Below, in pieces: positions 25,821-29,322 of a DNA stretch of 30,584 nt. Under the pieces are notes generated by a model that was not told where the DNA came from, searched no databases, and saw only the letters and a program-made list of their open reading frames with translations. The translations under genes and the position numbers were made by a program. Position 1 is the stretch's first letter, and each line of letters begins with the position of its first letter. This DNA comes from Escherichia phage ESSI2_ev015: sequence record NC_049395.1; one strand, written 5' to 3'.

Positions 25821-26324
25821 TCACATCAGGCCGGTGGCATTGGTTGTGACCAAATCCACCGCAGCGGCCAGAACCGGCGCAGAGTGAATACGGCTTTCAA
25901 CGGTATAAGCCAGAACGGATAAGCTACGGATTGCATCGCGGGCGCGATCCAGAATTTGAGTACGGCGGGCGGCGGTCATATGGCCAGTTGATACGGCTTC
26001 CCCAGCAATCGCGCCTACACACGCAGTGGCGCTAAGCGCACACAACTGCATGTTGGCTTCAGTGGCATTGTTCACCGGCACGGATGGAAGGCAGTTAATC
26101 TGACCTAACATCCCATCAAGTAAACGCGCATCCTCGGTGTAATCCGTGATAGCCAAAAGCTCATCACAGGTTAAGCGGTGCGGTTGTGCTGGGTTCAGTT
26201 TGTTGCGCAGGATCTGCGACTTCATACCAACGGCTGCGGCCACATCTTCAAGATTGTGCTCAGTTGCAAATGCTCGGCAAGCCGCATCAAAGTGCGCATG
26301 TTTAGAGGTCTGGTAATCAAACAT
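25821..26324 (-). CDS. cII: CII-like lysogeny establishment regulator (186 CII-like)
   Basis: 167 aa (186 CII is about this size as I recall), second gene of the early lytic operon after the Apl/Cox-like gene; AGGGAGAGG Shine-Dalgarno. Confidence 0.55.
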   Translation of the reverse strand: MFDYQTSKHAHFDAACRAFATEHNLEDVAAAVGMKSQILRNKLNPAQPHRLTCDELLAITDYTEDARLLDGMLGQINCLPSVPVNNATEANMQLCALSATACVGAIAGEAVSTGHMTAARRTQILDRARDAIRSLSVLAYTVESRIHSAPVLAAAVDLVTTNATGLM

Positions 26325-26354
26325 TGTTTGCCTCTCCCTAATCCGTAGGATGGA

Positions 26355-26576
26355 TTACGCGTTAAGCGAAATATTGCATTCGCTTAACGCTTCAACGGTC
26401 AGAGCGGCCATGTTTATTTCCACACGGCCTTTAGGCATTTCTCCTTTGCCACGAATAGGCAGACGGCCATCCCGGATCATGTCACGGGCTGTGCTTTCAG
26501 CTGTATTCGTTAATTTGCACCACTCTTTAAGTGGTAGATAAGGGGCTGGGATGGTGATTGTAATGTTAGGACGCAT
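26355..26576 (-). CDS. Apl/Cox-like small HTH protein (excision/switch regulator)
   Basis: 73 aa, first gene of the early operon, divergent from the repressor; helix-turn-helix-like segment KEWCKLTNTAESTARDMIRDGRLP. Confidence 0.5.
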   Translation of the reverse strand: MRPNITITIPAPYLPLKEWCKLTNTAESTARDMIRDGRLPIRGKGEMPKGRVEINMAALTVEALSECNISLNA

Positions 26577-26710
26577 AAGGCAAACTCCCGTATTCGGTTG
26601 AATGCAGCAACATTCAACAACATTCGATTTAAACTACAACACGGAGAGACTCTACTTCGACTTAATCGAGAAATCAACAGTATTTCGATTTAATCGAGAG
26701 AGCTAGCGAT
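26577..26710. promoter_or_regulatory. Immunity switch region (divergent early/lysogenic promoters and operators)
   Basis: 134-bp intergenic region between divergent apl-like and cI-like genes; three copies of TTCGAYTTAA (26623, 26656, 26684), two extended to 16-bp repeats TTCGA(C/T)TTAATCGAGA with near-palindromic core; tandem 10-bp repeat CAACATTC(A/G)A at 26608-26627. Confidence 0.5.
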
Positions 26711-27298
26711 ATGAGCAAATTCCCTTTTGAGCAGATAGGGCACAGCAGCGACGTGCTTGATCGAGTAGTAGAGGCTTACGGCTTCACTTCAAAGCTACAG
26801 CTTGCGGAACATTTCGATATGGCCTCAAGTAGCCTTTCCGCAAGGTTTAAACGAGGAATATTCCCGGCTGATATGGTGGTTCGCTGCGTAGCAGAAACCG
26901 GGGCGTCTCTTGAGTGGCTATCTACTGGCCAGGGGAAGAAATTCGATGATGATCAGTTAGACATCATGAAATTTCCCCGTAAAAAATTAGTTGATGGCCA
27001 GCTCTATGACTCTGGTTACGCAATGTTCGATAAAGTTTTTTTCAGGGCAGGAGCGCCACTCCCCGCAGCACCTTTCTGCGTACTAGATGAAAAAGCGCAG
27101 TACATCCTAGACCAGAAATTTTCCGAGGTTTTTGATGGCGAATGGCTGGTAAATATCGAAGGAAAAACCAGTATCAGAACGCTGACACGCATCCCGGTAA
27201 AAAAGGTACGCGTCAGTGGTGTTGGCATGGCTTTTGACTGTGGGCTGGAAGATATCGAAATTATCGGCCGCGTGGTCATGACGATAACAAACGCATAA
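26711..27298 (+). CDS. cI: CI-like immunity repressor
   Basis: 195 aa (186 CI is ~192 aa as I recall), immediately upstream of and overlapping int (TAATG); divergent from the early operon. Confidence 0.6.
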   Translation: MSKFPFEQIGHSSDVLDRVVEAYGFTSKLQLAEHFDMASSSLSARFKRGIFPADMVVRCVAETGASLEWLSTGQGKKFDDDQLDIMKFPRKKLVDGQLYDSGYAMFDKVFFRAGAPLPAAPFCVLDEKAQYILDQKFSEVFDGEWLVNIEGKTSIRTLTRIPVKKVRVSGVGMAFDCGLEDIEIIGRVVMTITNA

Positions 27299-28359
27299 TG
27301 GGCATCAGAAAACAGCCGGACGGGAAATGGTTGCTGGACTTTTACCCGGAAGGAAAACCCCAGGGAAAAGCCAGCAAGCGCATCCGCAAGACGTTCTCCA
27401 CCAAAGGCGAGGCGCTAGCCTACCAAAATCACATTATGGAAAACGTCCATGTAAAGCCCTGGCTTGACGGTAAAGAGGATCGGAGAAAGCTACGCGACTT
27501 AGTAAACCAATGGTTCGATGAACATGGTGTGACGCTTGACGATGGCGAAAAACGTAAAGGCGCAATGGAATTTGCGTGTCAAAGCATGGGTGATCCGCTG
27601 GCGCATGAATTTGACGCCACGATGTTTTCGCTTTATCGCAAAAAACGTTTATCCGGTGAAATATCCAGAACAGCGCGTGTAAAACAAGTCGCTCCCAGAA
27701 CCATGAATTTAGAACTGGCCTATTTTCGTGCCGTGTTTAATGAGCTTAAGCGCTTAGGACATTGGAAATCTGAAAACCCCCTGTCTAACGTTCGCCCCTT
27801 TAAATCTGAGGAAGCTGAACTGGCTTATTTGGAACATGATGAAATCGAACGATTGTTATCCGAATGTTCGAAAAGTCGAAACGCCAGCACTTACTGGGTT
27901 GCATGTTTATGCCTGATAACCGGCGCTCGCTGGGATGAAGCGGAATCATTAACGACTAAGCAAATCAGAAACCTAAAAGTCAGCTTTTTTAAAACTAAAG
28001 GGAACAGGAACAGAACTGTTCCAATCAGCCAGGACTTTTATGACGCATTGCCGAAACCAGAAAAACCAGGGCGTTTTTTTACACCCTGCTATTCGGCCTT
28101 TCGCAAAGCCGTAGAGCGTGCGGAACTCGACTTACCTGATGGCCAATTGTCACATGTGCTACGACACACTTTCGCCAGTCACTTTATGATGAACGGCGGG
28201 AACATTCTGGTTTTAAAAGAGATACTGGGACACACTGACATTAAAATGACCATGCGTTACGCGCATTTCGCTCCAAGCCATTTGCAGGAAGCCATAACGC
28301 TAAACCCTTTGGGACAAAATGCCCCTTTTCTGTCCCCTCAGGACTCAAACATCCAATAA
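27298..28359 (+). CDS. int: Tyrosine-type integrase
   Basis: 353 aa; C-terminal catalytic region HVLRHTFASHFMMNGGNILVLKEILGHTDIKMTMRYAHF (R...H-x-x-R...Y signature); adjacent to the att core. Confidence 0.9.
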   Translation: MGIRKQPDGKWLLDFYPEGKPQGKASKRIRKTFSTKGEALAYQNHIMENVHVKPWLDGKEDRRKLRDLVNQWFDEHGVTLDDGEKRKGAMEFACQSMGDPLAHEFDATMFSLYRKKRLSGEISRTARVKQVAPRTMNLELAYFRAVFNELKRLGHWKSENPLSNVRPFKSEEAELAYLEHDEIERLLSECSKSRNASTYWVACLCLITGARWDEAESLTTKQIRNLKVSFFKTKGNRNRTVPISQDFYDALPKPEKPGRFFTPCYSAFRKAVERAELDLPDGQLSHVLRHTFASHFMMNGGNILVLKEILGHTDIKMTMRYAHFAPSHLQEAITLNPLGQNAPFLSPQDSNIQ

Positions 28360-28432
28360 CATTCAATAATATTCGTTGTGTAACTTTCTGATTTATCTGT
28401 AAGTTATTGTTTTTAAATGATGGTGCATCGTT

Positions 28433-28531: not shown

Positions 28532-28695
28532 GTTTATAGTGGTCAGTGTCCCCTTTTTGTCCCCTCACTTTCACCCACACTCATCTATACCTCAGTTGTT
28601 AGCACTTCACCGAACCATGACGATTGAACGCTTTGCGCTTTTTTTACATACTGTTTCAATCTCATTTGCCAATAATTTTTAGTCAGGATGACAAT

Positions 28696-29322
28696 ATGAC
28701 TTCGTACAATGAACTGAAAGAATGTATCCGCCTTGAAGTCATTGGCCATGACAAATCCTTTTCATGGCGTAAAGCGTTACTTCGTACCCGACGCAACCAG
28801 AAGAAGCACTTCCTGTTCTGGTGGCGTATTGCTTCATGGCTCTATGCCCAGAATAGTAAGTTCAAAAAGCGCATTGCCCGCAGGATTGAAAACCGCCTCA
28901 AGTACCGGCACAGCGTTGATATTTCGCTGTCATGCAAAATCGGCAAGGGTTTAAACATTGCTCATCTAAACGGCATTGTGATTACTGACAATTGCGTGAT
29001 TGGTGATTTCGCCGACCTGAAGCAAGGCATCACCATAGGGTTACGCACCGACAGTGCCGACGCGATGATAGTCATTGGTGATCGTGTTGATATTGGCTGT
29101 AACTCGTCCATTCTGGGCGGCAAGGTTACGATCGGAAACAATGTCACCATTGGTGCGCATTCGCTAGTGCTTCAGAACATCCCCAGCGACACCGTTTATA
29201 AAAACAAGATCACGCCAGTGTATACATCCAAACTACCGCAGACGGAATATCAGGAAAAGCAGCCTTTTGTCACTGGCAATGCGACAAAAGAAGCGTCCCG
29301 TTCCGCAGAAGCAGTGCTGTAA
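28696..29322 (+). CDS. Hexapeptide-repeat acetyltransferase, serine acetyltransferase (CysE/WcaB)-like
   Basis: Track start is TTG; ATG at 28696 with AGGATGA upstream. Left-handed beta-helix hexapeptide repeats (IGKGLNIAHLNGIVITDNCVIGDFADLKQGITIG...) preceded by a WRIASWLY-type helix as in the CysE family; low-GC region. Confidence 0.65.
   Translation: MTSYNELKECIRLEVIGHDKSFSWRKALLRTRRNQKKHFLFWWRIASWLYAQNSKFKKRIARRIENRLKYRHSVDISLSCKIGKGLNIAHLNGIVITDNCVIGDFADLKQGITIGLRTDSADAMIVIGDRVDIGCNSSILGGKVTIGNNVTIGAHSLVLQNIPSDTVYKNKITPVYTSKLPQTEYQEKQPFVTGNATKEASRSAEAVL

Follow-up and report, generated by a model that had tools for sequence, protein, structure and literature searches.

What do the repeats between the apl/cox-like and cI genes of Escherichia phage ESSI2_ev015 do, and which protein goes with which of them? 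We addressed this question in a stretch of 30,584 bp from sequence record NC_049395.1, called the window below, in which the spacer between the starts of the two genes occupies positions 26577-26710 (134 bp). Our analysis makes it likely that the spacer is a lysis-lysogeny control region of the phage 186 type, carrying interleaved sets of sites for the CI repressor and for the Apl/Cox-like protein. The computation shows that the sites exist and are not random, where they lie, how they are conserved and co-vary, and what the proteins are; actual binding, promoter activity, the transcription starts and any interference of the lytic promoter, pR, with the lysogenic promoter, pL, are inferred from sequence comparison.

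Genes and repeats of the switch region

Two divergent genes border the spacer.

26355..26576, minus strand: apl/cox-like gene, 73 amino acids, first gene of the lytic operon
26711..27298, plus strand: cI, 186-type immunity repressor, 195 amino acids

The start codon of the apl-like gene appears as CAT at 26574-26576 on the minus strand and the cI ATG lies at 26711 on the plus strand, which confirms the 134-bp distance between divergent genes given in an earlier note on this DNA. CI contains both Pfam domains of the 186 repressor, PF07022 (4.6e-23) and PF16452 (4.2e-33), and thus combines an N-terminal helix-turn-helix with a C-terminal oligomerisation domain as in the 186 CI family. It is 43% identical to 186 CI, matches the crystal structure of that protein (PDB 2FJR) over residues 12-190 (E 5.5e-38), and its C-terminal domain is homologous to 2FKD. 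The Apl-like protein belongs to phrog_575, "Cox-like excisionase and repressor" (E 2.7e-25), while Pfam gives a weak HTH_17 match only. A BLASTP comparison with 186 Apl returned no alignment, so that the family assignment rests on PHROGs and the protein belongs to a different Apl/Cox subgroup. The apl-like gene is followed by a homologue of cII (CP76; PF06892, 1.1e-46; phrog_101), and cI by a tyrosine integrase gene. With the lytic operon opening on a Cox/Apl-type gene, cII next in line and cI diverging from them, the gene layout, as read from these homologies, is that of 186 and not that of the C/Cox switch of P2.

The repeats in the spacer are clearly non-random. The motif TTCGAYTTAA occurs three times in the window (26623, 26656 and 26684), always within the spacer, against 0.10 occurrences expected by chance, and three copies were reached in 0 of 100 shuffles. 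The two right-hand copies extend into a 19-nt direct repeat, TACTTCGACTTAATCGAGA and TATTTCGATTTAATCGAGA, with 17/19 identity and a distance of 28 bp. They hold two copies of a 13-bp palindrome, TCGAYTTAATCGA, likewise 28 bp apart: the core at 26685-26697 (TCGATTTAATCGA) is a perfect palindrome around a central T, and that at 26657-26669 (TCGACTTAATCGA) has one asymmetric position. A mismatch scan of the window with the 13-mer palindrome recovered a partial third copy at 26624-26636 with 2 mismatches, all other sites having at least 3. A second repeat type, the tandem CAACATTC(A/G)A, spans 26608-26627 and consists of the units CAACATTCAA (26608-26617) and CAACATTCGA (26618-26627). The first of these also serves as the 3' arm of an inverted repeat with 8-bp arms (26597-26604 and 26611-26618), and the second shares bases with the third TTCGA copy at its left end. 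The three motif copies, the extended repeat with a near-palindromic core and the tandem repeat described in the earlier note were thus all recovered, with the qualification that the third motif copy is a match of half-site quality only.

Palindromes and tandem repeats in related loci

The palindromes, the tandem repeat and the promoters predicted around them make up the following elements.

26558..26586, plus strand: pL, predicted lysogenic promoter toward cI; -35 TTGTAA (26558-26563, inside apl), 17-nt spacer, -10 CAAACT (26581-26586)
26608..26627, plus strand: two 10-bp direct repeats, predicted Apl/Cox units between pL and pR (CAACATTCAA, CAACATTCGA)
26622..26638, no strand assigned: O3, weak or partial predicted CI site, ATTCGATTTAAACTACA; good left half-site, degenerate right half
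26649..26677, minus strand: pR, predicted lytic promoter toward apl; -35 TTGATT (26677..26672), 17-nt spacer, -10 TAGAGT (26654..26649)
26655..26671, no strand assigned: O1, predicted CI operator, 17 bp, CTTCGACTTAATCGAGA, around the core at 26657-26669; fills the whole spacer between the pR -35 and -10
26683..26699, no strand assigned: O2, predicted CI operator, TTTCGATTTAATCGAGA, around the perfect 13-bp palindrome at 26685-26697; just upstream of the pR -35

To ask which protein goes with which repeat, we compared 51 loci (5 genomic, 43 from viral contigs and 3 from annotated records) whose CI proteins are 60-98% identical, together with 186, and grouped their spacers by CI recognition helix. 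The order of elements from the apl side is constant: a hairpin (discussed below), tandem repeat, O3, pR -10, O1, pR -35 and O2. The half-sites differ between groups. The window's group has TCGA(C/T), and the others have TCGTA..TACGA, TTCGCA..TGCGAA, TTTTCA..TGAAAA, TTAGA..TCTAA or the asymmetric TTAG-N6-GCAAA.

The earlier note had made its repressor-site reading dependent on conservation of the repeats alongside the same repressor, and this conservation is seen. Seventeen distinct spacers accompany a CI N-terminal domain at least 86% identical to that of the window, and 16 of them keep TTCGAC in the first palindrome (the left half of O1) and TTTCG(A/C)C in the second while their flanks drift. 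The exception, L022, is the most distant (86%), belongs to the "KRGTF" recognition-helix group and has asymmetric TTAG-N6-GCAAA sites. Where the CI helix differs, other palindromes with other half-sites stand in the same place.

The two repeat types can be separated by natural exchanges. Loci L025-L030 agree with the window in CI helix and in TCGA palindromes, yet their Apl belongs to the subfamily TAENLISYGKLPIKPKG instead of TARDMIRDGRLPIRGKG, and there CCAATAT (CCAATRT) repeats replace CAACATTC. Conversely, L020, L021 and L031 have the window-type hairpin, tandem repeat and Apl subfamily together with other CI helices and other palindromes, and L011 and L034 combine the same Apl helix-turn-helix with unrelated palindromes. 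This double dissociation across the 51 loci indicates that the palindromes follow CI and the tandem repeats follow Apl. Since the palindromes fill or flank the pR elements, are kept with the same CI and are swapped with another, the comparison supports their identification as predicted CI operators on the lytic promoter, as the earlier note had proposed. The comparison also shows a modular switch, whose apl-side and cI-side halves appear to recombine near O3.

Two sets of loci bear on operator specificity and modularity in their own right. In L002, L022 and L023, CI differs from that of the window mainly by a change of I to T in "KRGTF" and by a few residues of helix 2, and their operators are two inverted copies of an asymmetric 15-mer, TTAGWTTTWTGCAAA, not TCGA palindromes; part of what determines specificity is therefore located elsewhere than in the recognition helix. 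A mosaic switch is seen in L034 (IMGVR_UViG_2690316252_000002), in the spacer preceding the cI gene at 2501. Its O1 and O2 are of the TTAGA type, its O3 region (ATTCGCATTTTGCAAAC) matches operators of the TTCGCA type, which belong to another immunity group, and its hairpin stem differs from that of L011 despite their identical Apl helix-turn-helix. This arrangement suggests that a recombination breakpoint fell between O3 and O1.

Predicted promoters and operators

We assigned the promoters by homology to the 186 annotation and by conservation across loci. pR is the best sigma-70-like candidate on the minus strand of the spacer (8/12), with a predicted start near 26642. Its 17-nt spacer coincides exactly with the 17-mer O1, a layout shared with the annotated 186 pR, whose spacer holds a palindrome at the position equivalent to O1. 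The pR hexamers recur at the homologous position, as TTGAnn-17-TAnnnT, in 33 of 38 distinct related spacers. For pL, TTGTAA is present in all 38 distinct loci and CAAACT in 35, the variants CAAAAT and CAATAT retaining A2 and T6. The GenBank annotation of 186 places the pL -35 inside apl and the -10 five bases past the apl ATG, with pR facing pL from the cI side. The offsets of the predicted pL are the same: its -35 begins 18 nt before, and its -10 begins 5 nt after, the last base of CAT. With a predicted pL start near 26593, the two promoters would lie face to face and their transcripts would overlap by about 50 nt; a switch of the 186 type has convergent promoters 40-60 bp apart. The divergent genes of the earlier note thus stand, and the refinement concerns the promoters themselves, which most likely converge as in 186. 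Its suggestion that the repeats should map to promoter elements also agrees with the predicted layout, in which one palindrome fills the 17-bp spacer of pR and the other lies just upstream of the -35.

A position weight matrix (PWM) built from the operators of the window's CI group ranked O1 first in the window (26.4 bits), O2 second (23.8 bits) and O3 third (11.4 bits), and nothing else exceeded 11.1 bits. O1 and O2 lie 28 bp apart from centre to centre, and the distance is 28-29 bp in all operator groups; the right edge of O2 adjoins the cI ribosome-binding region. O3 is 33 bp from O1, roughly from +5 to +21 relative to the predicted pR start, and matches O1 and O2 at 13/16 positions. Across 13 operator types, O3 resembles the operators of its own group (mean 11.4/16) more than those of other groups (10.0/16; permutation p ~0.0008).

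On this basis we propose that CI dimers would bind O1 within the pR spacer, O2 upstream of the -35 and probably also the weaker O3, and would thereby block RNA polymerase at pR and maintain lysogeny. The half-site (T)TCGA(C/T), with its 9-bp half-site spacing, would set the immunity specificity of the phage. In 186, repression of pR relieves transcriptional interference on pL (PMC3675496). With pR and a weak pL facing each other about 50 bp apart, shutting pR here would likewise relieve interference on pL and sustain expression of cI and int. The Apl/Cox-like protein, made from pR, would bind the 10-bp tandem repeat head to tail between the promoters and modulate both.

A second array beside the att core

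The tandem repeat has a counterpart beyond the integrase gene.

28346..28375, plus strand: three 10-bp direct repeats, predicted att-site Apl/Cox array (AACATCCA, AACATTCA, AATATTCG); overlaps the int stop codon
28432..28477, plus strand: att core, 46-bp 3' fragment of a tRNA-Ile gene (anticodon CAU), identical to the truncated tRNA-Ile in 186 attP

An 18-nt double unit, AAYATTCAAYAAYATTCG, has exact copies in the window only at 26609-26626 and 28358-28375, the expectation being 0.14 matches even at up to 3 mismatches. A third unit begins at 28348, the spacing being 10 bp throughout. The array lies 57-84 bp upstream of the att core, and the five annotated Apl sites of 186 lie 45-91 bp upstream of the same core. 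Local alignment of the att core with the 186 attP region gave identity throughout (CTCATAATCGCTTGGTCGCTGGTTCAAGTCCAGCAGGGGCCACCA), and ARAGORN found no complete tRNA in the window; the identical core implies the same attachment site as 186 (ileX/ileY-type). As a control, a repeat search started from the 186 switch sequence recovered the annotated attP Apl sites of that phage.

In 186, the Apl sites are 6-bp direct repeats spaced 10-11 bp apart, located between pR and pL and at attP, and Apl and other recombination directionality factors bind head to tail on direct repeats one helical turn apart (PMC7498355). The repeats described here follow that pattern, with two units in the switch and three by att, 10 bp apart and in subfamily-specific variants; the other Apl subfamily has three CCAATAT units both in the switch and just after int. 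Because the tandem repeat recurs by the att core and changes with the Apl subfamily, not with CI, its identification as a putative Apl/Cox array is supported, in line with its 10-bp period and with the earlier note. On the array beside the att core, the Apl/Cox-like protein would act as an excisionase.

Alternative readings and points against the 186-type model

Could the tandem units instead be weak CI half-sites, with the DNA wrapped on a CI multimer as over 186 pL? In 186, the protection given by CI reaches about 60 bp past the three operators and across pL, by way of weak sites that are poorly defined (PMC3675496). The units here hold ATTC(A/G)A, which resembles the TTCGA half-site (ATTCRA), the second unit overlaps O3, and ATTCG stands at the tandem-repeat position in most operator groups. 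We nevertheless think this improbable, for the 18-nt double unit and a third unit recur by the att core, a place in which CI is not known to act, and in L025-L030 the repeat type shifts with the Apl subfamily while CI and the palindromes stay as in the window. The two readings of the tandem repeat, as Apl sites and as weak CI sites, are compatible with each other. Binding of the palindromes by the Apl/Cox-like protein or CII, and not by CI, might be entertained given that Apl/Cox proteins of P2-like phages also repress switch promoters and that the Apl-like protein has a helix-turn-helix. Yet the unrelated palindromes of L011 and L034, whose Apl helix-turn-helix is the same, exclude Apl as their binder, and CII N-termini are near-identical across several operator types. 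Palindromic 17-bp sites also suit a dimeric repressor such as 186 CI, whereas recombination directionality factors bind direct repeats (PMC7498355). We therefore regard this assignment as very improbable. It is scarcely credible that the repeats are neutral remnants of local duplication: slippage can create short repeats, but the architecture is fixed relative to the promoter hexamers in more than 35 distinct spacers whose intervening bases have diverged, and the repeats co-vary with protein type.

Several observations nonetheless count against a 186-type control region with CI operators and Apl sites. The three predicted CI sites do not show the two-turn spacing of 186, where three sites lie about 21 bp apart; the distances from centre to centre are 28 and 33 bp in the window and range over 28-29 and 31-33 bp in the clade. 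O3 is weak, and in L034 it departs from the own-group trend by resembling a foreign operator type, although such an O3 is the expected product of recombination inside the switch. No match to O1 or O2 with up to 4 mismatches was found within 1500 bp on either side, and neither a mismatch scan nor the PWM gave anything significant in the way of distal sites of the FL/FR type known from 186. Both promoters are weak relative to consensus (8/12 for pR and 7/12 for pL), and a generic sigma-70 scan of 26300-26900 with a threshold of 9/12 returned no promoter because both scores fall below that threshold. Only two clear Apl-type units are present in the switch, and 186 Apl is reported to bind efficiently in vitro only where three operators adjoin. 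Finally, the recognition helix alone fails to predict operator type. A simple helix-to-operator code was rejected because it fails for L005 and L034, which share a helix but not operators, and for the "KRGTF" group; this failure implies that other residues contribute to specificity.

A covarying, probable hairpin between the predicted promoters

Between the predicted pL and pR, and overlapping the tandem repeat, lies an element that follows neither protein.

26597..26618, no strand assigned: inverted repeat, covarying hairpin, GTTGAATG-cagcaa-CATTCAAC; 8-bp arms (26597-26604 and 26611-26618) and a 6-nt loop

The hairpin begins about 4 nt after the predicted pL start and, on the other strand, ends 7 nt before the apl Shine-Dalgarno sequence. 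Its position is kept in all loci while its sequence varies, with nine different 5-bp inner stems (GAATG, GAGCG, GAGTA, GGATA, GGACA, CTGTA, CGATA, CGACA and GAACT). Of the 135 cells that the five inner pairs make up in 27 distinct spacers, 128 are Watson-Crick; every pair has undergone two-sided changes, and no G-T pair occurs among them. Overall pairing is 81.9%, compared with 64.2% in shuffles (0/500), and falls to 30-51% once the partners are slid. The plus-strand RNA folds at -8.8 kcal/mol (z -3.9). Wobble pairs were considered as a guide to the strand on which the hairpin acts and set aside as too weak to decide, with none in the inner pairs and 7 G-T against 1 A-C in the outer pair 21-43. 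The conserved loop (NGSYAA) and the first bases of the 3' arm form the first Apl-type unit. A search of 26200-26900 against Rfam, with E up to 1, gave no match, and 186 has no comparable hairpin between pL and pR (z -0.1 and -1.5).

We examined whether the stem tracks CI, Apl or CII, and it tracks none of them: stems differ among loci that share the Apl helix-turn-helix, the CI helix or a near-identical CII N-terminus, so that no switch protein explains the hairpin. We conclude that 26597-26618 is probably a nucleic-acid hairpin, perhaps one formed in RNA at the 5' end of the pL transcript, in the apl leader, or in both. The pattern of compensatory change could also reflect a palindromic operator for a dimeric protein, such as one recognising an inverted Apl unit, or for another or a host factor. 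The 5-bp arms are 11 bp apart from centre to centre, the inner five pairs lack wobble, as DNA symmetry would have it, and the 3' arm is the first Apl-type unit. We consider an operator unlikely, if still worth keeping in view. Nine stems exist, and they differ where the Apl helix-turn-helix is identical (GAGCG in L011 and GAACT in L034; GGATA in L007 and GGACA in L043) and where the CI helix is the same or CII near-identical, so that no DNA-binding protein encoded at the locus tracks the stem. The array at att has no inverted partner, and the absence of wobble is equally expected for a hairpin formed in both convergent transcripts. A need for the hairpin in both overlapping transcripts is possible and would explain that absence.

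A more specific proposal, which we advance only tentatively and as a doubtful one, is that the hairpin is a functional RNA element of the switch, located in the stretch of about 50 nt transcribed from both pL and pR. Complementary hairpins would then form at the 5' end of the cI-int transcript and directly upstream of the apl ribosome-binding site. The 186-type switch has hitherto been explained only by protein-DNA binding and transcriptional interference; if the proposal holds, the hairpin would add a post-transcriptional layer, such as mRNA stabilisation, translational control or sense-antisense pairing. Taken with the 28- and 33-bp operator spacing and the lack of FL/FR sites in our scans, it would mean that this clade runs the logic of 186 by a partly different mechanism.

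Relation to 186, P2 and related prophages

The locus shares with 186 the cII-apl arm divergent from cI-int, the same CI Pfam families, a predicted palindromic operator in the pR spacer with one site on each side, Apl-type 10-bp direct repeats between the promoters and by attP, and an identical tRNA-Ile att core. The 186 annotation lists three CI sites on pR and, for Apl, seven sites between the promoters and five at attP; FL and FR are placed about 300 bp away. The differences are of several kinds. The spacer is 134 bp here and 129 bp in 186; the half-site is TCGA(C/T) here and of the ATTCAC or TCTC type in 186; the Apl-type units number two in the switch and three at att, against seven and five; BLASTP detects no similarity of the Apl-like protein to 186 Apl; the covarying hairpin has no counterpart in 186; and no clear FL or FR was found here. 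In 186, the two-turn operator spacing is tied to the wheel formed by the CI 14-mer (PMC3675496), around which DNA is wrapped and looped, with neighbouring operators matching adjacent dimers of the wheel.

The 186 FL and FR sites have the form ATTCAC-N5-GTGAA(T/G), the same geometry as the palindromic 17-bp sites of the window, and FR (ATTCACATAAAGTGAAT) stands at the position where the window has TTACGCGTTAAGCGAAA (26355-26371), next to the stop codon of apl at a distance of 300 bp from O1. This is the top PWM match outside the spacer (11.1 bits), a score that lies within the shuffled maxima (mean 12.0). It is part of another inverted repeat. Since it is kept in all operator groups, including those with unrelated operators, it was rejected as CI-specific and is a doubtful analogue of FR.

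We also observed at 26359-26392, in the last apl codons (ALSECNISLNA), an inverted repeat with 12-bp arms, GCGTTAAGCGAA-N8-TTCGCTTAACGC, in the place that the pE start and FR occupy in 186. Its RNA folds at -18.5 kcal/mol (z -4.6), and it is conserved whatever the operator type of the locus, some pairs having changed together from G-C to A-T. A lysogenic transcript may have in it a second 5' hairpin, or it may act as a signal for processing or termination.

The Pe-Pc switch of P2 resembles the window in its face-to-face promoters and in a Cox/Apl protein that serves both as switch repressor and, via direct repeats, as excisionase. It differs in having no cII and in its C repressor, which is unrelated, half-sized and binds two direct repeats; the P2 C and 186 CI families are unrelated (PMC3448106). 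The repressor of the window, at 195 amino acids, is of the 186 type and its predicted operators are palindromic, which sets it apart from a P2-type switch.

Closer relatives are Yersinia phage vB_YenM_324 (Peduoviridae, Tresduoquattuorvirus) and enterobacterial prophages, which share the spacer architecture of hairpin, tandem repeat, O3 and pR, with O1 and O2 28-29 bp apart. They also share the Apl family and have CI proteins 60-98% identical; the prophages come from Kluyvera, Cronobacter, Enterobacter, Salmonella and E. coli GF131. Most of these relatives have other half-sites and so represent other immunity types, and only L001, L010 and L016 have near-identical operators. A search of the literature found no experimental study of these relatives.

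Implications

On sequence grounds, the locus is a new immunity type within the known family of 186-type switches, which is informative but not surprising. The comparison provides a predicted operator sequence, and hence a predicted immunity specificity, for a widespread clade of 186-like (Peduoviridae) prophages of Enterobacterales, and its natural "domain swaps" indicate which repeats go with CI and which with Apl/Cox. A related repressor with operator spacings of 28-29 and 31-33 bp and no obvious looping sites offers a test case for the generality of the 186 CI wheel model. Just two features, the hairpin and the departure in operator spacing, could take the analysis past what is known from 186. 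There is modest practical value in predicting heteroimmunity between prophages and in orthogonal repressor-operator pairs for synthetic biology.

Further observations

Among 5,426 complete E. coli genomes, the only full-length relative is the distant one in GF131 (78% identity), so that the window does not come from a common E. coli prophage. In this strain (NZ_CP172134.1, 3577427-3581385), the annotation gives cII as a truncated pseudogene, and cI and int are separated by an additional open reading frame; the relative is probably a decaying prophage. Past the att core of the window, at 28624-29322, an open reading frame encodes a 232-amino-acid protein that resembles the hexapeptide-repeat (acetyltransferase) type.

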